Shown piece by piece: positions 13,296 to 54,095 of a DNA stretch of 64,000 nucleotides. This DNA is from Myxococcota bacterium. GTDB taxonomy: Bacteria; Myxococcota_A; Polyangia; Nannocystales; Nannocystaceae. Every line of letters begins with the position of its first letter. Within the stretch, counting starts at the first letter, position 1. Where the stretch lies: assembly GCA_039028615.1 (NCBI GenBank), contig JBCCHT010000003.1:160001-224000 (forward strand), given 5' to 3'. The position numbers and the translations under genes were made by a program. Below the pieces are notes generated by a model that had not been told where the DNA came from, did not search any database, and saw only the letters and a program-made list of their open reading frames with translations.

Positions 13296-13862
13296 ATGAT
13301 TGACGGGGCACCGAATCTCGGCGCGGCGATGCGCCGACGGCGAAAGGCCAAACAGCTCACGCTCGAGGTTCTGGCCGAGTCCAGCGGGGTCAGCGTGACC
13401 ATGCTGTCCGAGGTCGAGCGCGGGGTGAAAAACCCGACCGTGCGGCTGGCCTATCACATCGCCCGTGCCCTGGGCTGCACCCTGACCGACCTGCTCGAGG
13501 ACGAGGAGCGGCCCCCCAACAACCTGGTGCGCGCCAAGGGGCGGCGGTGCCTGCTCGACGAGGAGTCGGGGGTCGAGCGCTTCGGCCTCACCCACGAGCT
13601 GATGCGGCCCGGCGTGGAGCTGGTCTGGTACACGATTCCGTCGGGCTCGAGCGCAGGAGAGATGGTGCCCAACCGGCCCGGGGTCGCCGAGATCCTGACC
13701 GTGCTGCAAGGCACGCTGACGCTGCGATTGGGCGACGAGGTCCACGAGATGGGGCCGCGCGACACCATCGCCTATGGCGCTCAAGTCATGATGGAGTACC
13801 GCAACGAAGGCGACGATCCCTGCGAAATCCTGCTGGTCTGTGATCGCGGAGGTCGCCCATGA
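13296..13862 (+). CDS. XRE-family HTH regulator with cupin domain
   Basis: LTLEVLAESSGVSVTMLSEVERGVKNPT HTH, C-terminal cupin; stop overlaps the next start (ATGA). Confidence 0.9.
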   Translation: MIDGAPNLGAAMRRRRKAKQLTLEVLAESSGVSVTMLSEVERGVKNPTVRLAYHIARALGCTLTDLLEDEERPPNNLVRAKGRRCLLDEESGVERFGLTHELMRPGVELVWYTIPSGSSAGEMVPNRPGVAEILTVLQGTLTLRLGDEVHEMGPRDTIAYGAQVMMEYRNEGDDPCEILLVCDRGGRP

Positions 13863-14800
13863 GCCGTCGCATTCGCGTGGTCGACAGCCACACCGAAGGT
13901 GAGCCGACGCGAGTGGTGATCGAGGGCGCGCCGGACTTGGGTCCGGGCACGGCCCGCGAGCGAGCCGAGCGCTTCCGCCTCGAGCACAATGGCTTTCGGA
14001 CCGGCCTGCTCGGCGAGCCGCGTGGGTTCGACGCGATGGTCGGCGCGCTGTTGCTGCCGCCCAGCTCCGAAGACGCGGTCGCGCAGGTGCTGTTCTTCAA
14101 CAACGTCAGCACGCTGCACATGTGCGTGCACGGCATGCTGGGCGTGGGCCGAACGCTCGCCCACCTGGGCCGCGTGGGCGCCGGGGTGCATCGGGTGGAG
14201 ACCCCGGTGGGCGACGTGTTCGTCACCCTCGACGAGCAGGGGCGGGCCTCGGTGGAGAACGTGCCCAGCCGTCGCGCGACCAAGAACATCGAGCTGCAGA
14301 CCCGCGATCACGGTCGCGTGGTCGGTGACGTGGCCTGGGGCGGCAATTGGTTCTTCTTGGCGCACGAGCACGGCCACGAGGTCAGCTCGGGCAAGATTCC
14401 CGAGCTGACGGCGCTGAGCTGGGACATTCGTCGGACCCTCGAAGCGCAGGGGATCACGGGCGACGATGGCCTCGAGATCGATCACGTCGAGGTCTTCGGT
14501 CCGCCGCAGCGCAGCGATGCCGACAGCAAGAATTTCGTGCTGTGCCCGGGGGGCGAGTACGACCGCTCTCCGTGTGGCACGGGCACGAGCGCCAAGCTGG
14601 CGTGCCTGGCCGCCGACGGCCGCCTGGCGCCGGGTGAGCAGTGGCGCCAGGAGAGCGTGATCGGGAGCGTATTCGAGGGCAGCTATCGTCGGGTCGAGCG
14701 TGGCATCGTGCCCACGATCCGCGGCGGGGTATGGATTACCGCCGAGACCACTCTGATCATCGAAGACGATGATCCCTACGCCGAAGGGATCGTGTTGTGA
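13859..14800 (+). CDS. lhpA: 4-hydroxyproline 2-epimerase (proline racemase family)
   Basis: DSHTEGEPTR, MCVHG and DRSPCGTGTSA two-Cys motifs; operon context. Confidence 0.88.
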   Translation: MSRRIRVVDSHTEGEPTRVVIEGAPDLGPGTARERAERFRLEHNGFRTGLLGEPRGFDAMVGALLLPPSSEDAVAQVLFFNNVSTLHMCVHGMLGVGRTLAHLGRVGAGVHRVETPVGDVFVTLDEQGRASVENVPSRRATKNIELQTRDHGRVVGDVAWGGNWFFLAHEHGHEVSSGKIPELTALSWDIRRTLEAQGITGDDGLEIDHVEVFGPPQRSDADSKNFVLCPGGEYDRSPCGTGTSAKLACLAADGRLAPGEQWRQESVIGSVFEGSYRRVERGIVPTIRGGVWITAETTLIIEDDDPYAEGIVL

Positions 14801-15936
14801 CCTCCAATTACGATGTGGCCGTCGTCGGGGCGGGCATCGTAGGGGCGGCATGTGCCGAGCGTTTGGTCCAACGAGGTCTGTCGGTGGTGATCGTCGATCG
14901 AGCGTCGCCCGCGGGCGGGGCGACGGCGGCGGGCATGGGGCACCTGGTGGTCATGGACGGGAGCGAGGCTCAGCTCGAGCTCACCGCGATGTCCCGGCGG
15001 CTGTGGGCGGAGCGCGTCGGGCAGCTGCCGACCGAGGTCGAGCACGAGCGCTGCGGCACCCTGTGGGTGGCGGCGGACGACGAGGAAATGGCGGAGGCGG
15101 AAGCCAAGCGGCAGGCCTACGAAGACCACGGCGTGCCGGCCGAGATCCTCGATGCGGCCGCGCTCGCGGAGGCGGAGCCCCTGTTGCGCGACGGCCTGGC
15201 CGGGGCGCTGCGGGTGCCGGACGACGCGGTGCTCTATCAGCCCAATGCCACCCGCTGGATGCTGCAAAACGCGGTGGACGGCGGCGCGACCCTGCACACG
15301 CACGCGCCCGTGCGCTGCGTGGGGGACGGCCGTGTGGAGCGAGCGGACGGCTCGACCATCCACGCCGAGCACGTGGTGGTCGCGGCGGGAGCCCATAGCG
15401 CGGCCATGCTCGAGACCCGCGATTTCGACGAGGCGATTCGCCCTCGCAAGGGCCACCTGGCGATCACCGATCGGGCTCCTGGGACCTGCCACCACCAGCT
15501 GGTGGAGCTGGGCTACATCAAGAGCGCCCACGGCAACGACGCCGAGTCGGTCGCGTTCAACCTCCAGCCGCGTCGCACCGGGCAGATCCTGGTGGGCTCG
15601 TCGCGGCAGTACGGGGTCGATCACGATCGGGTGGAGCCCGAGATGATCGGGCGCATGCTGGCCCGCGCGCTCGAGTTCATGCCCGCGCTGGCCGACATCG
15701 CGGTGCTGCGGACCTGGTCCGGATTTCGCCCGGCGACCGACGACGGCATGCCGCTCATCGGAGCGCTGCCCGACGACACGCGCACGCTGCTCGCGGCGGG
15801 ACACGAAGGGCTGGGGATCACGACCTCGCTGGGGACGGCAGCGCTGGTCGAAGCGATGGTGATGGGGGAGGCACCCCCGATGTCGGTGGCGCCCTTTGCC
15901 CCGAGTCGGGTGTTGGAGGGCATGGCCCATGGCTGA
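14797..15936 (+). CDS. lhpB: D-hydroxyproline dehydrogenase, FAD (DAO-family) subunit
   Basis: GAGIVG, GATAAGMGH, ELGY, GHEGLGITTS; coupled to the epimerase. Confidence 0.82.
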   Translation: MTSNYDVAVVGAGIVGAACAERLVQRGLSVVIVDRASPAGGATAAGMGHLVVMDGSEAQLELTAMSRRLWAERVGQLPTEVEHERCGTLWVAADDEEMAEAEAKRQAYEDHGVPAEILDAAALAEAEPLLRDGLAGALRVPDDAVLYQPNATRWMLQNAVDGGATLHTHAPVRCVGDGRVERADGSTIHAEHVVVAAGAHSAAMLETRDFDEAIRPRKGHLAITDRAPGTCHHQLVELGYIKSAHGNDAESVAFNLQPRRTGQILVGSSRQYGVDHDRVEPEMIGRMLARALEFMPALADIAVLRTWSGFRPATDDGMPLIGALPDDTRTLLAAGHEGLGITTSLGTAALVEAMVMGEAPPMSVAPFAPSRVLEGMAHG

Positions 15937-16183
15937 GCGGCTTCGCATTCGCATCGACGGGGTCGAGCACGAGGTCGCGGCGGGCACCAGCGTGGCCGCC
16001 GCGCTGTGGAACGCGGGCGCACGGGGCTTTCGGCGCTCGGTGGGCGGCCAGCTCCGCGCACCCCTGTGCGGCATGGGCACGTGCTTCGAATGTCGCGTGT
16101 CGATCGACGGCCGCGGGGGGCTTCGCAGCTGCCAGACGACCTGCCGTGAAGGCATGGAAGTGAGGACCGCGGATGCGACGTGA
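15929..16183 (+). CDS. 2Fe-2S subunit of D-hydroxyproline dehydrogenase
   Basis: PLCGMGTCFECRVSIDG...SCQ; ATG 15929. Confidence 0.85.
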   Translation: MAERLRIRIDGVEHEVAAGTSVAAALWNAGARGFRRSVGGQLRAPLCGMGTCFECRVSIDGRGGLRSCQTTCREGMEVRTADAT

Positions 16184-17450
16184 AGCAACCGAGGTGCTCG
16201 TGGTGGGCGGAGGCCCGGCCGGCTTAGCCGCGGCAGAGGCAGCGGCGACGGCGGGTCGCCGGGTCTGCATGCTCGACGACAACCCCGCGCTGGGCGGACA
16301 GATCTGGCGTCGAGACACGCGCAACGCCGAGGCCCGCGGCAACCAGCACGTCGATCGCCGACGCGCTGCGCTGCTCGAGGCGGGCGTCGACATTCGCTCG
16401 GGTACGGCGGTCGTCGATGCCCACGGTCCCGATGCGCTGTGGGCCTACGACGGCGACGCGCTGACCCAGTGGCGAGCCGATCGGGTGATCCTGGCCACGG
16501 GAGCCCGAGAGCGCACGCTGCCCTTCCCCGGCTGGACGCGTCCCGGCGTGTTCGGGGCGGGCGGGCTGCAGGCGCTCAGCAAGGCGGGCCTGGAGGTCGA
16601 GGGTAAGCGCGTGGTGGTGGCGGGCACGGGTCCGCTGCTGCTGGCGGTGGCGACGAGCTTGCAGCAGCGGGGCGCGAAGGTGCTCGGGGTGTTCGAGCAG
16701 GCCTCGCACGCACGCTTCGTTCGCTTCGGCCTGGGTCTGTGGGCTCAGCCGGCCAAGCTGCTGCAGGGCATGGCCTTCGGGGCTCGCCTGCCGCTGCGCC
16801 TGGGCTCGTGGATCGCCCGCGCCGAAGGGGATCCCGCGCTGACCCACGTCGTCGTCTGCAATGCCCGAGGCCGCGAGCGAACCCTCGAGTGCGACCTGGT
16901 CGCGTGCGGCTTTGGCCTCGTCCCCGAGACCCGCCTCGCCCGCTTGTTGGGCTGCCGCGTCGAAGACCACGTGGTCGTCGACGAGCTCCAGCGCACGGAC
17001 GCCCCCGGGGTGCTCGCGGCGGGAGAGCCCTGCGGCGTCGGTGGTGAAGACAAGGCGCTATGCGAGGGCCGTATCGCGGGCCTGGTGGCGGCCGATCGCG
17101 CCGACGAGGCTCGCCCCCTGCTGGCGCAGCGCGATCGCTACCGTGCGTTCGCCCGCCGCATGGCCCGGGACTTCGCCCTGCGCGAGCAGCTGCGCGAGCT
17201 CCCCGAGCCCGACACCCTGGTGTGTCGCTGTGAAGATGTCCCGCTCCGTGCTCTCAACGGATTCGACCGAGCCCGCGCCGCGAAGCTCGGGAGCCGTTGC
17301 GGCATGGGGCCCTGCCAAGGCCGCGTGTGTCAGCCGGCCATTCGTTTCTTGCTGGGGCACGGCCACGACCGGCCGCGTCCTCCGCTGGTTCCGCTACCGC
17401 TCGGCGTGATGGCCGAGCTGCAATCCATCAACCAAGGATCTTCGTCATGA
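16173..17450 (+). CDS. FAD/NAD(P)-binding subunit of D-hydroxyproline dehydrogenase
   Basis: GGGPAG, ATGARER, FPGWT, VCRCEDV, RCGMGPCQGRVC. Confidence 0.82.
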   Translation: MRREATEVLVVGGGPAGLAAAEAAATAGRRVCMLDDNPALGGQIWRRDTRNAEARGNQHVDRRRAALLEAGVDIRSGTAVVDAHGPDALWAYDGDALTQWRADRVILATGARERTLPFPGWTRPGVFGAGGLQALSKAGLEVEGKRVVVAGTGPLLLAVATSLQQRGAKVLGVFEQASHARFVRFGLGLWAQPAKLLQGMAFGARLPLRLGSWIARAEGDPALTHVVVCNARGRERTLECDLVACGFGLVPETRLARLLGCRVEDHVVVDELQRTDAPGVLAAGEPCGVGGEDKALCEGRIAGLVAADRADEARPLLAQRDRYRAFARRMARDFALREQLRELPEPDTLVCRCEDVPLRALNGFDRARAAKLGSRCGMGPCQGRVCQPAIRFLLGHGHDRPRPPLVPLPLGVMAELQSINQGSSS

Positions 17451-18355
17451 CCGTCGTCTGGAATGGCATCATGCCCGCGATTACCACCCCCCTTCGCGAG
17501 GACGGAGGAGTCGACCACGACTTCCTCGTCCGTCACGCGCGATGGATGGCCGAGGCCGCCAAGGCCACCGCCATCATTCCCCTGGGGTCACTCGGCGAGG
17601 GGCAAACCCTCGTCTTCGAAGAGAAGCAGGCCATCATCAAGAGCCTGGTCGATGGCCTCGACGGGCTCGCGCCCGTCGTGCCCGGCATCGGCGAGGCGGC
17701 CACCCACCGAGCGGTGGAGCTGGCTCGCTACGCCCAGCAGGTGGGCTGTGGGGGGCTGATGGTGCTGCCGCCCTACGTGCACAACGGGGGCGACCGCGAG
17801 CTGCGGGCGCACTTCGACGCCGTGATCTCGGCCACCGAGCTGCCCTGCATGCTCTACAACAACCCCATCGCCTACGGGGCGGACATGAAGCCCGAGGCCA
17901 TCGCGGCCCTGGCCGAGGCCCACCCCAACCTGCTCGCGGTCAAGGAGTCGAGCGGAGACGTGCGGCGAGTGACCGCGCTCGAGGCCCTGCTCGGCGATCG
18001 CCTCACCCTGTGCGTGGGCCTCGACGACATCGTGGTCGAGGGCGTGCGCGCGGGCGCCACGGGCTGGGTCGCCGGCCTCGTCAACGCGCTGCCCGAGGAG
18101 TCGGCGCGGCTGTTCAACCTCGCCAAGGCCGGCGAGACGAAGGCCTGCGACGAGCTGTACGCCTGGTTCTTGCCGCTTCTGCGCCTGGACGTCGTGCCCG
18201 AGTTCGTGCAGCTCATCAAGCTCGTGCAGCAAGAGGTCGGCATGGGCGACGAGCGCGTTCGCCTGCCTCGCCTCGCCCTGGCCGGGGCCGAGCGCGAGCG
18301 TGCGATGGAGCTCATCCGGGCTTCGCTCGCGCAGCGCAGCGAGGTCGGCAAATGA
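17447..18355 (+). CDS. lhpC: DHDPS-family enzyme, probable 1-pyrroline-4-hydroxy-2-carboxylate deaminase
   Basis: PAITTP, GSLGE, LYNNP, KESSGD; operon context. Confidence 0.82.
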   Translation: MTVVWNGIMPAITTPLREDGGVDHDFLVRHARWMAEAAKATAIIPLGSLGEGQTLVFEEKQAIIKSLVDGLDGLAPVVPGIGEAATHRAVELARYAQQVGCGGLMVLPPYVHNGGDRELRAHFDAVISATELPCMLYNNPIAYGADMKPEAIAALAEAHPNLLAVKESSGDVRRVTALEALLGDRLTLCVGLDDIVVEGVRAGATGWVAGLVNALPEESARLFNLAKAGETKACDELYAWFLPLLRLDVVPEFVQLIKLVQQEVGMGDERVRLPRLALAGAERERAMELIRASLAQRSEVGK

Positions 18356-19902
18356 GCCTCGGACGCGGTCAATCGATCGCGGGGGCGTTCGAGACCGGGG
18401 TCGGCGAGTCATTCTCGGCCGTCGATCCTCGTGATGGGTCGACGCTCGCGGGCTCGTTCCACGAGGCCACCGCCGACCAGATCGATCGGGCGCTCGAGGC
18501 CGCCGCGGCCGCTCATCGGCAGTGGCGGCGGGCTCCGCGAGAGCGTCGGGCTCGGCTTCTCGAAGCCATCGCCGCCGGCCTCGAAGGCCTGGGGGACACG
18601 CTCATCGATCGGGCCAGCGCCGAGAGTGGCTTGCCCAAGGCCCGGATCACGGGCGAGTGCGGACGCACCACCGGGCAGCTGCGGCTGTTTGCCACGGTCG
18701 TGCGCGAGGGCGCCTATCTGCAGGCCCACATCGATCGGGTCGCCCAGGATCTACGTCGCATGGAGATGCCCGTGGGTCCGGTGGTGGTGTTCGGGGCGAG
18801 CAACTTCCCGCTGGCCTTCTCGGTCGCGGGGGGGGACACCGCCTCGGCTCTGGCCGCGGGGTGCCCGGTGGTGGCCAAGGCTCATCCCGCGCACCCCGGT
18901 ACCTCCGAGCTGGTGGCCGAGGTCATCGCCAAGGCGGTGGCCGAGGTCGAGGCCCCGCCGGGGCTGTTCTCGTGCGTGCAGGGCCGCAGCCACACCGTGG
19001 GCGAGCGCTTGGTCATGCATCCGGCCGCGCGAGCGGTGGGCTTCACCGGTTCGCTCGCGGGAGGCCGGGCGCTGTACGCCCTGGCCGCGGGACGACCCGA
19101 GCCGATCCCGGTCTTTGCCGAGATGGGCAGCATCAACCCCGTGGTGTTGTTGCCGGGCGCCTTGGAGCGCGACGCGGTCGGCGAGGCCGAGGGGCTCTTC
19201 GGTTCCTTGACCATGGGGGTGGGGCAGTTCTGCACCAATCCCGGGCTGGTGCTCGTGCTCGCGGGGGCCTCCACCGAGGCGTTCCTGACCAAGTTGACGG
19301 CGCTCGCGACCGAGGCGCAGCCCGCCACCATGCTGCACTCGGGCATCGCTCAGGCCTACACGCGGGGGATCACCTCGTTGGCCGGGGCAGGGGCCAAGGC
19401 GCTGGTCGATACGGCGGTGGTGCAGTCCGACCACGCGGCGGTGCGACCGGTAGTGTGGCGGGTTTCGGCCACCGACCTGTCGACCACGGAGGCGCTGCGT
19501 GAGGAGTGCTTCGGCCCCTCCACCGTCGTCGCCGTCGCCGAAGACCAAGAGCAGCTGCTCGCCGCGGTGCAGTCGCTGTCCGGTCAGCTCAGCGCGACCC
19601 TTCATGCGACCGAGGCCGATCAGGCGCTGGTCGACACGCTGCTGCCCGAGCTGGAAGAGCGGGCGGGGCGGGTGCTCTTTGGCGGCATGCCCACGGGGGT
19701 CGCGGTGGTGTCCGCCATGCAGCACGGCGGGCCCTGGCCCGCGAGCTCGGACGCCCGCTTCACCTCGGTGGGCACGGGCGCCATCGCTCGCTTTACGCGT
19801 CCCGTGTGTTGGCAGGACGCCCCCGCTGCTCAGCTCCCGGTCGAGCTGCGCGACGAGAACCCGGGCATCCCCCGACGCGTCGACGGCAAGCCCGAGGCGT
19901 AG
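18352..19902 (+). CDS. lhpG: Alpha-ketoglutaric semialdehyde dehydrogenase
   Basis: FGASNFPLAFSVAGGDTASA, GFTGS, AEMGSINP, GQFCTNPG, HGGPWPA; ATG 18352. Confidence 0.88.
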   Translation: MSLGRGQSIAGAFETGVGESFSAVDPRDGSTLAGSFHEATADQIDRALEAAAAAHRQWRRAPRERRARLLEAIAAGLEGLGDTLIDRASAESGLPKARITGECGRTTGQLRLFATVVREGAYLQAHIDRVAQDLRRMEMPVGPVVVFGASNFPLAFSVAGGDTASALAAGCPVVAKAHPAHPGTSELVAEVIAKAVAEVEAPPGLFSCVQGRSHTVGERLVMHPAARAVGFTGSLAGGRALYALAAGRPEPIPVFAEMGSINPVVLLPGALERDAVGEAEGLFGSLTMGVGQFCTNPGLVLVLAGASTEAFLTKLTALATEAQPATMLHSGIAQAYTRGITSLAGAGAKALVDTAVVQSDHAAVRPVVWRVSATDLSTTEALREECFGPSTVVAVAEDQEQLLAAVQSLSGQLSATLHATEADQALVDTLLPELEERAGRVLFGGMPTGVAVVSAMQHGGPWPASSDARFTSVGTGAIARFTRPVCWQDAPAAQLPVELRDENPGIPRRVDGKPEA

Positions 19903-30353: not shown

Positions 30354-31118
30354 ATGAGCGAAGCCGACCTCTACCACGCCCTCGTCATGCTGCTGTTCGC
30401 CATCGCGGGGGTGGTCTTTGCCGTGCTCGGCTTGGTCAGCGCGCCCTATGGGCGTCACGCTCGGCAGGGCTGGGGCCCTCGCGTGGGCGAGCGCGTGGCG
30501 TGGATCGTGATGGAGGCGCCGTCGTCGTTGCTCTTCGCGTGGATCTTCTTCCAGGGTCCGCGCGCCTTCGATCCGGTGCCGCTGGTCATGCTGGGCCTGT
30601 GGCAGGCGCACTACCTGCACCGCGCGTTCATCTACCCGCTTCGCAAGCGCAGCCGACCCGGCCAGACGATGCCCCTGGTGGTCATGCTGATGGCGTTGGT
30701 GTTCAACGTCCTCAACAGCTACCTCAACGCGCGGTGGCTGTCGGCGATGGGGCCCGAGTATGCGCTGCGGTGGTTGCTGACCTTCCGCTTCCTGTACGGG
30801 GCGATGCTGTTCATCACCGGGTTCGTCATCAATCGCTGGGCCGACGCTCGGCTCCGCACGCTGCGGCGCCCGGGAGAGAGCGGCTACTCGATCCCCCGCG
30901 GGGGCTTGTTCAACGAGATCTCGTGCCCGAACTACTTCGGTGAGCTCGTGCAGTGGGTGGGCTGGGCTCTGCTCACCTGGTCGCCGGCCGGCATGGCCTT
31001 CGCCGCGTTCACGGCCGCCAACCTGGTGCCGCGGGCGGTGACCCATCACCGTTGGTACGAGCGCACCTTTCCCGGCTACCCGCGGCGTCGCAAAGCGATC
31101 ATCCCTTACGTGCTGTGA
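30354..31118 (+). CDS. 3-oxo-5-alpha-steroid 4-dehydrogenase (steroid 5-alpha-reductase family)
   Basis: APYGRH, AWIVME, HYLHRAFIYP, YSIPRGGLF, SCPNYFGELVQW, NLVPRA, HHRWY. Confidence 0.92.
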   Translation: MSEADLYHALVMLLFAIAGVVFAVLGLVSAPYGRHARQGWGPRVGERVAWIVMEAPSSLLFAWIFFQGPRAFDPVPLVMLGLWQAHYLHRAFIYPLRKRSRPGQTMPLVVMLMALVFNVLNSYLNARWLSAMGPEYALRWLLTFRFLYGAMLFITGFVINRWADARLRTLRRPGESGYSIPRGGLFNEISCPNYFGELVQWVGWALLTWSPAGMAFAAFTAANLVPRAVTHHRWYERTFPGYPRRRKAIIPYVL

Positions 31119-31265: not shown

Positions 31266-31288
31266 TGACATCGATGTCAGGGACTGAC
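31266..31288. promoter_or_regulatory. Candidate upstream activator site for a sigma54 enhancer-binding protein
   Basis: Perfect palindrome TGACATCGATGTCA (31266-31279) overlapping GTCAG-GGA-CTGAC, about 120-130 bp upstream of the -24 box. Confidence 0.5.
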
Positions 31289-31395
31289 GTCCGTGCGGGG
31301 GCCAAGTCGGACTTTTGCGTCATGCTGCTAGGGCAGAACGCGGCGATCTCGCGCCTGTGACGAAATTTCTTCAATGATCTCAGGTGGCGACAGGA

Positions 31396-31411
31396 TGGCA
31401 CGGTGGCTGCA
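31396..31411 (+). promoter_or_regulatory. Sigma54 (-24/-12) promoter
   Basis: TGGCACGGTGGCTGCA with exact GG-N10-GC spacing; predicted start near 31422. Confidence 0.75.
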
Positions 31412-31421
31412 ACTATTGTCG

Positions 31422-32000
31422 AGCGTCGGCGGGGTCGGTCCCAACCTCAACCTCGCAGGCCTCTTACTCTGGCTTGTTCTTGCATCCCTTCCTTTAGCTT
31501 ACTTGCTCCTTAGTTTGATTCGCTTGGCTTAGTGTCTGACTTGGACTGTCACTTTTCTCGACTTGGCTTAACCGACCGTCCTTGGCTTACCTGTTCGACC
31601 CCTTGGCTTGATCGATTCTCTTTGCGCGTCGCTTCGTTTCGTCCCCTTTGCGTACGCCTTGATGTCGCGCCGTTGGCCCTCGCCCCCTGAGGGCCCGGCT
31701 CGCGACTGCGGGCCCGGTGGAACCTGTGCACGTTCCCTGCAGGCATCCCCGATTCCCGGCCCGCCACGATTTCCCTCTGTTAGTCCGTTAGTACTTAGAC
31801 TTGACTTGGTTTGATTCTGGTCGCGTTGGAAAAACTAGTAGTAGTGCGTTAGTCGAACGATAGTTGCCCCACTTAGTCTTAGCTTAGGAATACTCGACGT
31901 TTCGAGTCGTCGTCCCGGAATCGGTGCCCCGGGACTTCCACTCCTTGGTCCGTCACTCCGATTCGAAAGCCCGGGCTCATTCGAGCCCGGGCTTTCGTGT
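31422..32000 (+). ncRNA. Putative ~575-nt sigma54-dependent non-coding RNA with repeated CUUGGCUU/UUAG motifs
   Basis: Bounded by a sigma54 promoter and a terminator; no credible ORF; U/C-rich, stop-codon-rich, interspersed GC hairpins. Confidence 0.6.
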
Positions 32001-32005
32001 TGGTT
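31964..32005 (+). terminator. Intrinsic terminator
   Basis: Perfect 15-bp stem CGAAAGCCCGGGCTC-ATTC-GAGCCCGGGCTTTCG followed by TGTTGGTT. Confidence 0.8.
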
Positions 32006-32113: not shown

Positions 32114-32953
32114 ATGACCACGTTTCGTGCCCCCGGATGCTCGCTCGTTCTCGCCATGATGACCACGACCGCGTGCGTGGTGATCGACGGTGGCGACGAC
32201 GATGGTGCGGCGGCGACCGAGGCCGCACCCACCACGACCTCCACGCCTTCGCCGAGCTCCGACGGGGGTGACACGGAGATCACGGGGTCGCCCACCCCCG
32301 AAGACTCGACGGCCGACGAAGGCACGAGTGCGGACACGAGCGGGGGGCAGACCGATGGCGTCGACTCGGGCAGCTCGACCACGGGCATCGAGTGCACGCG
32401 CTTTCTCGAAGGGGAGATCGAAGGCTGTCGCTGTCATGCCTTCGGCGGGCAGGGAGCGGGCCCGTTCTACTGCGGGGCCGATCTGCTCTGCGACGCGACG
32501 ACGGGCACGTGCACCAGCTCCACCGCGTGCGAGACGGTCGAGGCCGACCCCGAGCCGAACGACGGCCCGGACACGGCCACCGACTTCGGCATGGTGTGCA
32601 ACTCGTTGCCCTGGCAGGGCCAGCTCGAGCCGGGGGGCAGCGACTGGTTCACCTGGCGTGGGTTCCACCCCACGGCCGGCTGCGGCGATCCGGGGGGCGT
32701 GCAGACCTACGACCCGAACATCGAGGTCTGCTTCTATCACGCGTGCATCGACGGGCAGGGCGATCTCGGCGAGCTCAGCTGCGGCGGGACGTCGGTCACG
32801 CTCCCCGACGGCACGCCCGGCTGTTGCTCGCCGTCGGCCCAGGGCGACTCGCTCACCGCGTATGCGTGCGACCAGGGCGTCGAGGTCTGGGTCGAGCTGC
32901 GCAACACCACCGAGATGTGCATCGGCTACGAGGCGCAGCTGAACCTGGTCTAA
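32114..32953 (+). CDS. Cys-rich lipoprotein
   Basis: Signal ending TTTAC, Ser/Thr linker, EPND and DWF motifs, many Cys. Confidence 0.75.
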   Translation: MTTFRAPGCSLVLAMMTTTACVVIDGGDDDGAAATEAAPTTTSTPSPSSDGGDTEITGSPTPEDSTADEGTSADTSGGQTDGVDSGSSTTGIECTRFLEGEIEGCRCHAFGGQGAGPFYCGADLLCDATTGTCTSSTACETVEADPEPNDGPDTATDFGMVCNSLPWQGQLEPGGSDWFTWRGFHPTAGCGDPGGVQTYDPNIEVCFYHACIDGQGDLGELSCGGTSVTLPDGTPGCCSPSAQGDSLTAYACDQGVEVWVELRNTTEMCIGYEAQLNLV

Positions 32954-32963
32954 CGCGAGCGGC

Positions 32964-33467
32964 TCAACGCTGCTCGCGTTCTTTGAGGTACTCCTCGAGG
33001 TGCGGGACGATGGGTCGCCGCAGGATCTGCTCGGGAGACTCGAAGCCGGCCCACACGACCTCGCGATTGTCGACGTCGAAGGTCGGCTTCTCGTCGACCT
33101 CGATCTCCACGATCGTGACCTTGTCGTGACGGTTCTCGAACGAGTGCGTGCGGCTATAGACCTCGCTCAGGCGCTCGACGGGGACCCGGAGATCGACCTC
33201 TTCGATGAGCTCGCGTCGCGCCGCCGCGGAGGCGGACTCGCCCGAGCGCACGTACCCGCCGGGCAGCGAGTAGTGGAAGCGGTACGAGTTCTTGATGAGC
33301 AGCAATTTGCCCTCGTGCCACACCGCGACGAGCGCCCCGTGAGTATTCGGATGGCGGACCGCCCAGTACGCGCGGAGCATGCGATGGGCCACCCGGTAGG
33401 CGGTGCGGAAGCCGAGATCGACCATGGAGTCGATGCCCGTCGAGGCGTTGGGGTTGTTGTCGGTCAT
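32964..33467 (-). CDS. NUDIX hydrolase
   Basis: Nudix box PGGYVRSGESASAAARRELIEEVD; ATG 33467. Confidence 0.9.
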   Translation of the reverse strand: MTDNNPNASTGIDSMVDLGFRTAYRVAHRMLRAYWAVRHPNTHGALVAVWHEGKLLLIKNSYRFHYSLPGGYVRSGESASAAARRELIEEVDLRVPVERLSEVYSRTHSFENRHDKVTIVEIEVDEKPTFDVDNREVVWAGFESPEQILRRPIVPHLEEYLKEREQR

Positions 33468-51683: not shown

Positions 51684-53078
51684 ATGCCCGATTCGGACAA
51701 GTCCAAGCCCGGTGCGCCCCAGGTCGTGGGTACGGAGGTCTCCGCCACGTTGCCCGTGTCTCGGTCTGCGTCGCGCCAGGGTCGAACCCTGGTGGTGATC
51801 GCGGGAGACCGGGCCAGCTCGCATCAGCTGCCGGACACCGGTCGTTGCACCGTGGGTCGCGGCGACGAGGTCGACGTGCGCATCGATCATCCATCGGTCT
51901 CGCGAGAGCACGCGTGCCTGCACCTCGGGCGTCGCAAGGAGCTGCACCTCAGCGATACCGGCAGCTCCAACGGGACCCACGTGCGAGGCAAGCGTCTGGG
52001 ATCGGGGGAGCGGGTCAAGCTGGCGGCGGGCGAGACCTTCGAGGTCGGCTCGGTGCTGCTGATGGTGCAGGAGCCCTTCGGGCCCGAGACCGCCCTCGAT
52101 CCCAACCCGGCGGTGATCGACGACCGCGACATCGTGGTGCACGACCGCGCGATGACCAGCCTGTATCAGCTGGCGGAGCGGGTCGCGAAGAGCACGATCA
52201 ACGTGCTGCTGCTCGGTGAGACGGGCGTGGGCAAGGACGTGATGGCGCGCAAGATCCACGCGATGTCACCGCGCGCCGACAAGCCCTTCCTGCCGCTCAA
52301 CTGCGGTGCGCTGGCGGAGCAGCTGCTCGAGAGCGAGCTATTCGGCCACGAAAAAGGAGCGTTCACGGGGGCGGTCGAGGCCAAGCAGGGGCTGCTCGAG
52401 GCGGCCAACCACGGCACGGTGTTCCTCGACGAGGTCGGCGAGCTGCCGATGACCGTACAGGTCAAGCTGCTGCGCGTGCTCGAGGAACGCCAGGTGCGTC
52501 GGGTGGGCGGTCTGCGGGCCAAGGCCTTCGACATTCGCTTCATCGCGGCCACCAACCGCGACCTGGCCCAGGCGATCGAGGAGGGGGGCTTTCGCTCCGA
52601 CCTGTTCTATCGCCTCAATGGCATCTCGCTGGTCATCCCTCCGCTGCGGCAGCGGGTGGGAGAGATCGAGGGGCTGTCGCGGCGCTTCATCACCGAGGCG
52701 TGCGAGCGAGGGGGACGCGACTCGGTGCCGACGCTGTCGCCCGAGGCTTCCGCGTGGCTCGAGCGCAACCCGTGGCCGGGCAACATCCGCGAGCTGGCCA
52801 ACTGCATCGAGCGCGCGGTGCTGCTGTGCTCGGGCGATCAGATCACGCTGGAGCACCTGCCCGCGACCGACGGGCTCGTGTCGGTGGGGGCACCGGGGCC
52901 GACGGCTGCGCCCGCGTCCGCGAGCAAGCCCGAGCACCCCGAGCGCCGACGCATCCTCGAGGCGCTCGAGGAGTGTGCCGGCAACCAGACCCGCGCCGCG
53001 AAGCTGCTGGGGATCTCCCGCAACACGCTGCTGTCGCGGCTCGATCAGTACGACATCCCGCGGCCCCGCAAGCGCTGA
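51684..53078 (+). CDS. FHA-domain sigma54 enhancer-binding protein
   Basis: FHA (GR, SREH, SSNGT), GETGVGK, ESELFGHEKGAFTGA, FLDE, WPGNIREL, Fis HTH. Confidence 0.95.
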   Translation: MPDSDKSKPGAPQVVGTEVSATLPVSRSASRQGRTLVVIAGDRASSHQLPDTGRCTVGRGDEVDVRIDHPSVSREHACLHLGRRKELHLSDTGSSNGTHVRGKRLGSGERVKLAAGETFEVGSVLLMVQEPFGPETALDPNPAVIDDRDIVVHDRAMTSLYQLAERVAKSTINVLLLGETGVGKDVMARKIHAMSPRADKPFLPLNCGALAEQLLESELFGHEKGAFTGAVEAKQGLLEAANHGTVFLDEVGELPMTVQVKLLRVLEERQVRRVGGLRAKAFDIRFIAATNRDLAQAIEEGGFRSDLFYRLNGISLVIPPLRQRVGEIEGLSRRFITEACERGGRDSVPTLSPEASAWLERNPWPGNIRELANCIERAVLLCSGDQITLEHLPATDGLVSVGAPGPTAAPASASKPEHPERRRILEALEECAGNQTRAAKLLGISRNTLLSRLDQYDIPRPRKR

Positions 53079-53102: not shown

Positions 53103-54095
53103 TCAGTCGCAGGGGATGTGCACGTCGATGACCGTGCCCGTGCGGGCCTGGCCGTCGAAGGACGAGAACGCGAACTGGCTGCGCTCGATGCCGCAGTTGC
53201 CCCGCGCGTCGCAGAGTCGCTCCACGCGATGCTCGAGCTCGATCTCGGTCAGCCCGCTGTGCTGAAGCGGCGTCAGCTCCCACGGCGAGGAGGCCCGGTT
53301 GCGGTCGTGGTCGCTCCACAGCAGCAGTGAGCTCCAGGCGGAGTCGGCGGGGGAGATCCGCCCGTCGTGGTTTTCGTCGAGGTCGCGCAGGGCGTCGAAG
53401 CCATCGGTGGGCAGCCGGCCGTCGAGGGTGGGGCTGGCCGAGCCGAACAGCTCGCGGCCGTTCTCGATGCTGCCGCTGTGGTCGAGGTCGATGGCCAGCC
53501 AGGGGGTCTCGGCCCCGGGCCACTCGCGCGCGAGGCAGGCGTTGGAGCCGTCGCTCAGCTCGAAGGCCTCGACGCCCGCGTCGAAGCGGGGCTCCTGGCC
53601 GTCGAAGGACAGCACCAGCGGGGTGAAGCCACACTCTTCCCACACGGGCACGCCGTACTCGAGGCGGCAGCCGAGCTCTTCCTCCCCGAAGCCGCAATCG
53701 TCGAGGTAGGTGTCGCCCAGCTCGCACTCGACCTCGGTCACGCACGGACCCCAGCCGGCTGCGTTGGCCTCGCAGTACTGCACGCCGTACTGCTCGTCGG
53801 CCCAGCAGACCGAGGTGGCGCCATGCTCCTCGCAGGGCCCCTCGAGCTCGGCGACGGGGAGGCGAGGCGGGGGATCGACGTCCTCGCCTCCGTCGCTGCC
53901 CTCTTCCCCTTCGCCGTCCATGCCCTCGGTCTCGGCTTGGTCTTCCTCGGCGTCCTCGCTGCCGTCGCTGTCGGCCTCGTCCGCCTCGGCCATGGCGTCC
54001 TCGGGGAGGTCGTCGGACACGGGCGGGTCGCAGGCGAGAATCGAGGAGATTGCGCAGAGTCCGCAGAAACGAAGGATCGTGGCGTCGAAGGTCAT
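53103..54095 (-). CDS. Acidic lipoprotein with calcium-binding-like domain
   Basis: ILAC lipobox; TPLVLSFDG, DLDHSGSIENGRELFG, LDENHDGRI. Confidence 0.75.
   Translation of the reverse strand: MTFDATILRFCGLCAISSILACDPPVSDDLPEDAMAEADEADSDGSEDAEEDQAETEGMDGEGEEGSDGGEDVDPPPRLPVAELEGPCEEHGATSVCWADEQYGVQYCEANAAGWGPCVTEVECELGDTYLDDCGFGEEELGCRLEYGVPVWEECGFTPLVLSFDGQEPRFDAGVEAFELSDGSNACLAREWPGAETPWLAIDLDHSGSIENGRELFGSASPTLDGRLPTDGFDALRDLDENHDGRISPADSAWSSLLLWSDHDRNRASSPWELTPLQHSGLTEIELEHRVERLCDARGNCGIERSQFAFSSFDGQARTGTVIDVHIPCD

Follow-up and report, generated by a model that had tools for sequence, protein, structure and literature searches.

Genomic setting and layout of the locus

The window, that is, the whole 64-kb stretch of DNA analysed here, belongs to a coding-dense genome of 12.3 Mb that is 97% complete and has a GC content of 70%. 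It contains a repeat unit located between a 5-alpha-reductase-like gene and, past a lipoprotein-like ORF, a convergent NUDIX gene. Sites were assigned with the consensus motifs of sigma54, IHF and CsrA. The features of the locus are as follows:

30354..31118, + strand: steroid 5-alpha-reductase-like gene (PF02544), upstream neighbour of the array, with conserved synteny
31266..31279, + strand: activator box 1, the perfect palindrome TGACATCGATGTCA (family consensus GACA-N4-TGTCA)
31308..31324, + strand: activator box 2, CGGACTTTTGCGTCATG (consensus CGGACA-N3-GCGTCAT)
31370..31381, + strand: AT-rich patch resembling an IHF site, weak in the window copy and clearer in several homologues
31396..31411, + strand: sigma54 -24/-12 element TGGCACGGTGGCTGCA, lying 64-85 nt past box 2 in 33 of 39 promoter-pattern matches
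31421..32003, + strand: predicted noncoding RNA of ~580 nt, with its putative 5' end ~12 nt past the -12 GC (orthologues, 230-604 nt)
31468..31614, + strand: repeat cluster 1, with four CTTGGCTT and further variants and only weak structure (-0.15 kcal/mol per nt)
31544..31552, + strand: single-copy word GACTGTCAC (ACTGTCAC occurs 6 times in 7 orthologues vs 0.0 expected)
31625..31775, + strand: GC-rich folded spacer, not conserved in sequence in orthologues
31779..31888, + strand: repeat cluster 2, UUAG-rich in the window copy, with CUUGGCUU/UUGG words here in orthologues
31912..31935, + strand: hairpin with loop AAUCGGUGC; UCGGUGC is conserved across the family and the stem covaries
31964..31997, + strand: intrinsic-terminator-like hairpin, 15 bp, symmetric
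32114..32953, + strand: lipoprotein-like ORF without a Pfam match, 3' of the terminator
32964..33467, - strand: convergent NUDIX gene (PF00293), directly 3' of the terminator in most orthologous loci

Box 1, whose columns are invariant in an alignment of 30 sequences that were themselves selected on this pattern, is likely the binding site of a sigma54 enhancer-binding protein. The genome has 49 matches to PF00158, which represent candidate sigma54 activators. No sigma70-like site was found at the unit. The terminator hairpin is probably shared with the convergent gene, because it is symmetric, and the lipoprotein-like ORF has no counterpart at the same place in the orthologous loci listed.

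We infer that the stretch from 31421 to 32003 is transcribed, likely as a stand-alone noncoding RNA gene. Every reading frame of the RNA holds 6-8 stops, and no conserved ORF was found, the lone ATG-led ORF (51 codons) being unmatched by any ORF of about its length in six orthologues. An earlier sequence-only reading of this DNA had proposed a multivalent binding array inside a putative RNA; the present analysis supports such an array, noncoding, strand-polar and preceded by a sigma54 promoter.

Elsewhere in the window, an operon at 13859-19902 reads like hydroxyproline catabolism when its translations are inspected by eye (proline racemase-like, FAD oxidase subunit, DHDPS-like and aldehyde dehydrogenase genes).

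Repeat words are enriched on one strand of the unit

Exact copies of CTTGGCTT start at 31523, 31562, 31581 and 31602, and variant words of cluster 1 lie at 31468, 31493, 31509 and 31540. All motifs that the sequence-only reading had quoted in the two clusters stand where it placed them. It gave a spacing of roughly 20 nt, but the exact copies are irregularly spaced, at 39, 19 and 21 nt. The GC content drops to 53-54% within both clusters.

We compared the 574-nt unit with 5000 dinucleotide shuffles of itself. Neither the four copies of CTTGGCTT (shuffle mean 0.03) nor the ten of TTAG (shuffle mean 1.99) were reached in any shuffle (0/5000 each), and some 8-mer attained four copies in 23/5000, so that the motifs, for which a k-mer check had been proposed, are enriched over local composition. 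GGA was not enriched in the unit (6 vs 6.84 in shuffles) and ANGGA was absent from the window RNA (count 0), in line with the earlier view that this is not a CsrA-type GGA array. When all intergenic regions of the genome were ranked by density of the family motif, the unit came first of 2976, with 14 matches vs 6 for the next.

Between 31424 and 31995, TTAG occurs 10 times on the + strand and 0 times on the - strand, where the genome rate predicts 0.05. It was said to be scarce elsewhere in the window, and indeed the + strand of the whole window has only 15, but this scarcity is partly trivial because the genome is GC-rich and coding-dense. On contig C1, up to 9 TTAG per 600 nt occur in an AT-rich island, and TTAG alone is therefore less special than CTTGGCTT, which never exceeds 2 copies elsewhere in the genome. 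The island itself (G000:C1:168800-190000, 50-54% GC), which has the next highest TTAG counts in the genome, is probably foreign DNA.

The promoter and the array are distributed across the Nannocystaceae

By BLAST, the promoter or the 3' end was detected in 5/5 congeners and in 2/55 further genomes, one of the two weakly. The two-box pattern alone matched 39 stretches in the species-level genome collection. Past box 2, 33 of them carry GG-N10-GC at a distance of 64-67 nt (12 cases), 73-78 nt (20) or 85 nt (1), three classes that differ by about one helical turn. The other six, which carry unrelated taxon labels or none, have no sigma54 site and no array. Records with the two-box promoter are labelled Paraliomyxa, Enhygromyxa, Nannocystis or Nannocystaceae, and we therefore take the family to be Nannocystaceae; Paraliomyxa miuraensis and Enhygromyxa salina are cultured carriers.

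A sequence-only promoter model built from 30 promoters (threshold E up to 0.01) matched 69/73 Nannocystaceae genomes and 17/17 genera, training members included. For a blind test we took 40 matches that had played no part in training, selecting them for score and for a spread of genera. At least three pyrimidine-type motifs were present in the next 350 nt of the sense strand at 34 of these, compared with 17/2524 noncoding windows in the background, and one more carried a G-rich array. The genome-wide search for similar arrays behind sigma54 promoters that had been suggested earlier thus found them. On the opposite strand, 39 of the 40 had 0-2 motifs and the remaining one (L213) had 6. The five loci below the threshold comprised four visibly degenerate or mixed arrays and one short-leader mRNA. 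Among 20 further weak promoter matches there were 5 arrays, the rest being mRNA promoters or chance.

Outside the family, the promoter model gave weak matches in 4/88 genomes of the class and 8/140 of the phylum. No array was found at the 13 such loci examined, which were lipoprotein-like genes or chance matches; in these samples, therefore, the activator boxes are distributed more widely than the array RNA. A combined promoter and repeat pattern, too strict in that it missed the source genome too, yielded 0/401 genomes of the phylum. Sixteen chance matches of the 3'-end pattern in metagenome contigs included none with an array or promoter (0/16), and the promoter pattern had a single match in viral contigs, inside coding DNA. 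A triple-repeat pattern was rejected as too noisy, matching 73/91 genomes of the class mostly through coding repeats; the promoter was absent from 8 candidates taken from it.

Paralogous RNAs share a conserved word

Neighbouring genes separate the loci into those of the window type (reductase/NUDIX), those of an argC/argB type that faces a convergent gene, and smaller sets, with 1-3 RNA paralogues per genome. The second copy in the source genome (L254, G000:C5:35086-35693, - strand) is of the argC type and ~330 nt long. It lies between argC and a convergent gene without a Pfam match (MutH-like by eye), and shares the boxes, the sigma54 site, UCGGUGC and the terminator with the window copy.

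The conserved word of the family is CUUGGCUU, with variants CUUAGCUU and CUGACUU. CTTGGCTT occurs 66 times vs 1.3 expected, and CTGACTT 57 times vs 6.5 expected, in 29 argC-type RNAs, and CTTGGCTT 30 times vs 0.5 expected in 7 window-type RNAs, all of these being counts over related sequences rather than independent events. All seven window-type orthologues have 3-6 copies of CTTGGCTT each. TTAG numbers 0, 0, 1, 2, 3 and 2 in the six other orthologues against 10 in the window copy, to which heavy UUAG use is therefore peculiar. The cores of 197 CTT-NN-CTT words are GG (96), CG (22), AG (17) and GA (11), among others.

The word is kept while RNA length, order and spacing vary, and neither a 3-nt periodicity (frame classes 75/93/79) nor a helical phase (mean cosine -0.07 at 10.5 nt) was found. 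Protein-titrating RNAs such as CsrB, with a conserved repeat word and free length and order, are built in this way. CrcZ is a further example (PMC4063720).

Several variants of the arrangement were seen in single genera. At the window-type locus of one genus (L077, L091, L096, L107, L140-L142, L228), GGUUGG/GGUAGG repeats and some CAGGA replace CUUGGCUU. GGUUGG/GGUAGG occurs 43 times vs 3.5 expected in 7 RNAs of this G-rich subgroup, 4/7 of which can fold G-quadruplexes, and only UUGG is shared with the pyrimidine-type word. Near-perfect 19-nt units containing CTTGGCTT follow a sigma54 site and different upstream boxes in the same genus (L050, L052, L054, L058), and these arrays are convergent with a penicillin-binding-protein-like gene. 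In one genus, a short hydrophobic ORF (KLxxAFxxGxxxG) stands ahead of the array (L206, L210, L235, L258, L261); this paralogue is possibly a dual-function RNA, or its peptide may have been born from U-rich sequence.

Folding of the RNA and conservation of the 3' hairpin

We analysed 43 RNAs, whose ends were set by hand for several loci. In the window RNA, predicted folding energies were -0.15 and -0.17 kcal/mol per nt for the two clusters, and -0.41 and -0.53 for the spacer and the 3' end. As a whole, the unit folds little better than its shuffles (z -1.62). The GC hairpins reported between and after the clusters are present as quoted, but GGGCCCG/CGGGCCC overlaps an arm of GGCCCTC/GAGGGCC (31691-31697 vs 31689-31695), and because of this overlap the two are mutually exclusive. 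Accessibility of the motifs, proposed earlier as a check, turned out in the expected direction but only to a modest degree: the predicted unpaired probability was 0.47, vs 0.41 for the rest of the window RNA. Over 35 RNAs the values were 0.54 vs 0.42, a difference partly due to U content.

The 3' hairpin showed two-sided changes in 6/8 pairs, a score that 0/500 shuffles reached and that exceeded all slid controls, in an alignment of only 8 rows from which the structure had also been drawn, with one row misregistered by an inserted base and one being a terminator. UCGG(U/C)GC is present in 22/29 argC-type and 6/7 window-type RNAs, and UCGGUGC is absent within 650 nt in 19/40 held-out loci. The combination of a fixed loop and a covarying stem points to selection at the RNA level. 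The 5' hairpin consensus is weak and has no two-sided change. In argC-type RNAs, UGGUC was also seen in the terminator loop region in 25/29, often preceded by CUGGGGGGG, and an alternative pairing is possible.

Comparison with known regulatory RNAs

Rfam 15 had 0 matches at gathering score in the window, and 8 loci searched at E up to 1 gave a single chance miRNA match. No paper on such an RNA came up in the literature searched, which held few subscription papers; ncRNA catalogues in supplements could list it. We consider it likely that these loci form an uncatalogued, family-wide noncoding RNA family, which would work like the titrating RNAs and be a member of none, given that GGA is not enriched and Hfq was not found, which sets it outside both CsrB and CrcZ.

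To our knowledge, protein-titrating RNAs are known for few partners only, namely CsrA, Hfq/Crc, RapZ and polymerase. The CsrB/CsrC/RsmXYZ group resembles the array RNAs in being redundant and multi-copy, with a conserved word, free length and order, and one activator. The source genome also encodes a CsrA, by one csrA beside fliW. The array RNAs differ from that group in that GGA is not enriched, ANGGA is absent, structure prediction does not place the words in hairpin loops and Rfam gives no match. CrcZ of Pseudomonas is described as a 407-nt RNA with an RpoN promoter, an enhancer-binding response regulator and six repeated sites that titrates a translational repressor (PMC4063720). The sigma54 (RpoN) promoter with upstream activator boxes is a likeness to CrcZ/CrcY, whose sites, however, are A-rich and whose partner is Hfq, whereas the array RNAs are U/C-rich with a purine doublet, have an A content of 14% and occur in a genome where Hfq was not found.

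FopS/GibS with RbpB in Bacteroides likewise constitute a paralogous sRNA family, and the source genome has six genes for RRM-1 proteins like RbpB; FopS/GibS, however, are described as pairing through seeds and as having a single 41-nt motif in common, whereas the array RNAs repeat a short word behind a sigma54 promoter, and the term 'sponge' does not occur in that text (PMC11697453). Closer in taxonomy is Pxr of Myxococcus xanthus, a myxobacterial sRNA that depends on the sigma54 response regulator PxrR (PMC10217877) and has three stem-loops (PMC5684412); its origin seems to lie within Myxococcales (PMC8538405). Sigma54 control would be common to both, whereas the three stem-loops and that origin may set Pxr apart; no Rfam match came up at the array loci. 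Among the neighbouring ORFs listed at array loci, judged from their first residues only, no activator-like gene was found.

Glycine-rich RRM proteins are candidate partners

Hfq (PF17209, 0 matches, with a positive control in 5/14 genomes), ProQ and a CSD gene were not found in the 97% complete source genome. The sequence-only reading had proposed an RRM or cold-shock protein as the partner. A cold-shock protein is unlikely since none was found here, and only 25/73 family genomes have one. RRM proteins are the best remaining candidates because Hfq, ProQ and CSD were not found, an argument from elimination and analogy in which the elimination covered Hfq, ProQ, CSD and CsrA. There are 6 RRM genes in the source genome and 4-7 in each of 5 relatives. 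Four of the six proteins have Gly-rich tails of 31-61 residues with 50-72% Gly. RRM proteins are also present outside the family, whereas no array RNA was found among the promoter matches there.

The supporting argument from hnRNP A1 and UAG proved weak. TTAG occurs only 0-3 times in the six orthologues. For the one RRM compared, the closest solved structures are the PABP, Hrp1, hnRNP A1/A2B1 and plant GR-RBP domains, and its beta4 stretch, which bears on RRM sequence preference, is RVNEA vs EPKRA in hnRNP A1; because of this difference the UAG preference is not transferable. For plant proteins, one paper gives UUCUGG as the minimal GRP7 site, ascribes to GR-RBP domains a base preference without strong sequence specificity, and states that the Gly-rich region drives self-association (PMC4117745).

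The motif upstream of RRM genes numbered 12 sense vs 19 antisense over 32 genes, and no autoregulation was seen. Most glycine-rich RRM genes have a purine-rich GAAGAAG/GAGACGAG just before the start codon (L063-L068, L150-L175).

A titration model and its alternatives

We lean, with somewhat better than even confidence, towards a model in which the RNA would be an inducible multi-copy protein sponge that follows the CrcZ/CsrB logic with a new word. Sigma54 polymerase and one enhancer-binding activator would transcribe the stand-alone noncoding RNA, and its CUU(G/A)(G/A)CUU words would capture a single-strand RNA-binding protein in many copies and keep it sequestered. By elimination, this protein is most likely one of the glycine-rich RRM proteins. 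Such titration would free the mRNA targets of this protein and relieve translational repression. If the RNA is a sponge, a glycine-rich RRM protein is, by analogy, its probable partner; sponge and RRM partner taken together fall short of even likelihood, and we propose the pair tentatively. Equally tentative is a joint circuit in which one sigma54 activator would drive 1-3 redundant RNAs that titrate or condense eukaryote-like Gly-rich RRM proteins, these proteins replacing Hfq/cold-shock proteins and gating the translation of secreted and lipoprotein mRNAs. If true, RRM proteins would here have their own equivalent of the Csr system, one whose binding word can be read directly from the RNA, a circuit not described before. 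Bacterial RRM proteins are, as far as we know, poorly understood.

The conserved 3' loop allows a different division of labour, in which UCGGUGC is the seed of a base-pairing sRNA and the repeats are pads for a stabilising RRM chaperone, as in RbpB/FopS/GibS. A fixed loop on a covarying stem, found in 28/36 pyrimidine-type RNAs, would suit a seed, as would the failure to find Hfq and ProQ in the source genome, and RbpB, itself of the RRM-1 type, is reported to bind a paralogous family of 14 seed-acting sRNAs (PMC11697453). However, the loop complement GCACCGA was not enriched in 1845 leaders (17 vs 18), UCGGUGC is missing from nearly half of the held-out loci as noted above, and up to 20 motif matches per RNA exceed what a chaperone needs, so we regard a seed-acting sRNA as unlikely. 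An architectural RNA, whose multivalent sites nucleate Gly/RGG-tailed RRM proteins into a starvation or dormancy granule storing mRNAs or proteins, would draw on the Gly-rich tails of 4/6 RRM proteins, the self-association of the plant homologue and the two clusters parted by a folded spacer; some members, though, are only ~210-230 nt long with three or four words, and we think this very unlikely.

The sponge could also act on a CsrA whose preference has shifted from ANGGA to UUGG, given that csrA is present in 34/41 family genomes, GG is the commonest core (96/197 CTT-NN-CTT words) and the G-rich subgroup has 8 CAGGA. Yet the alignment of the source CsrA with that of E. coli needs no gaps, with the TR and REE positions kept, and csrA adjoins fliW, which encodes a protein antagonist. 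AG, GA and CG cores are common as well, ANGGA is lacking in the window RNA, and csrA was not found in G017, a 92% complete genome with two promoter matches. A shifted CsrA therefore appears highly improbable. It is also very improbable that the unit is not a regulatory RNA at all, being instead a DNA-level array of protein sites or the mRNA of a small membrane peptide. The paralogue with a short hydrophobic ORF in one genus would fit a peptide, and the convergent gene accounts for part of the terminator's conservation. On the other side, the strand polarity of the array is strict, its words follow no helical phase, and it is flanked by a conserved promoter and a covarying hairpin; its spacing keeps no frame, and in window-type RNAs every frame is interrupted by stops and no ORF is conserved.

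An explicit repeated word in a conserved multi-copy RNA family makes two questions directly testable, namely which protein reads CUUGGCUU and what it controls. The RNA family also opens a first way into the post-transcriptional control of Nannocystaceae, a family in whose source genome here Hfq, ProQ and a cold-shock protein were not found.

In the source genome, a sigma54 activator gene, csrA and fliW were seen in a row (L069, G000:C44:12884-15221, - strand); the neighbours listed included no evident flagellar gene.

Possible targets and extent of the regulon

Genes for secreted proteins or lipoproteins also have the activator boxes ahead of them. A relaxed double box occurs three times in the source genome, each time with a sigma54 site: at the two RNAs and at a lipoprotein gene on contig C9. 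The boxes thus define a small regulon of three full promoters.

The C9 gene (L259, G000:C9:562-1816, - strand) encodes an acidic, Cys-rich lipoprotein. Its leader has CUUAGCCUUAG against AGGA and 4 UU(A/G)G in 85 nt, two of them abutting AGGA, whereas 75 other sigma54-like leaders averaged 0.36 UU(A/G)G per 100 nt and none had 3. Since the same boxes stand ahead of this gene with words at its ribosome-binding site, a feed-forward loop like CbrB-CrcZ-Hfq would result. Among the homologues, a similar word lies 5-25 nt before the start in 3/14 loci listed, several starts being unlocated. A C13 gene has both boxes and 5 words in a leader of ~110 nt, with a sigma54-like site one base short of canonical; in 2/12 of its homologues the ribosome-binding site likewise has such words next to it.

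Across the 5' leaders of 1845 genes with confident starts, the repeat word was not enriched (TGGCTT, 13 sense vs 14 antisense). In a looser set of 3341 leaders, at least two UU(A/G)G were present in 160 vs 109, a modest excess that is uncorrected for T content. Taken together, the leaders are no more than suggestive of regulatory targets. At L262, L263, L266 and L270, promoter-model matches drive mRNAs with short leaders that lack the motif.

Several smaller observations concern genes of this kind. The window also contains a paralogue of the C9 lipoprotein (53103-54095), which converges with a sigma54 activator gene (51684-53078). At L233 (G066:C64), the family promoter drives a small ORF of ~26 codons; in its leader, CUUAGG and CUAGG immediately precede AAAGGAGG. 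Contigs C56 and C35 of the source genome (G000) carry paralogues of a secreted protein starting with ACGGTFCDAGPQ, with start regions rich in UUAG/UUGG, and in a relative a homologue of this protein stands behind the promoter-model match at L262.
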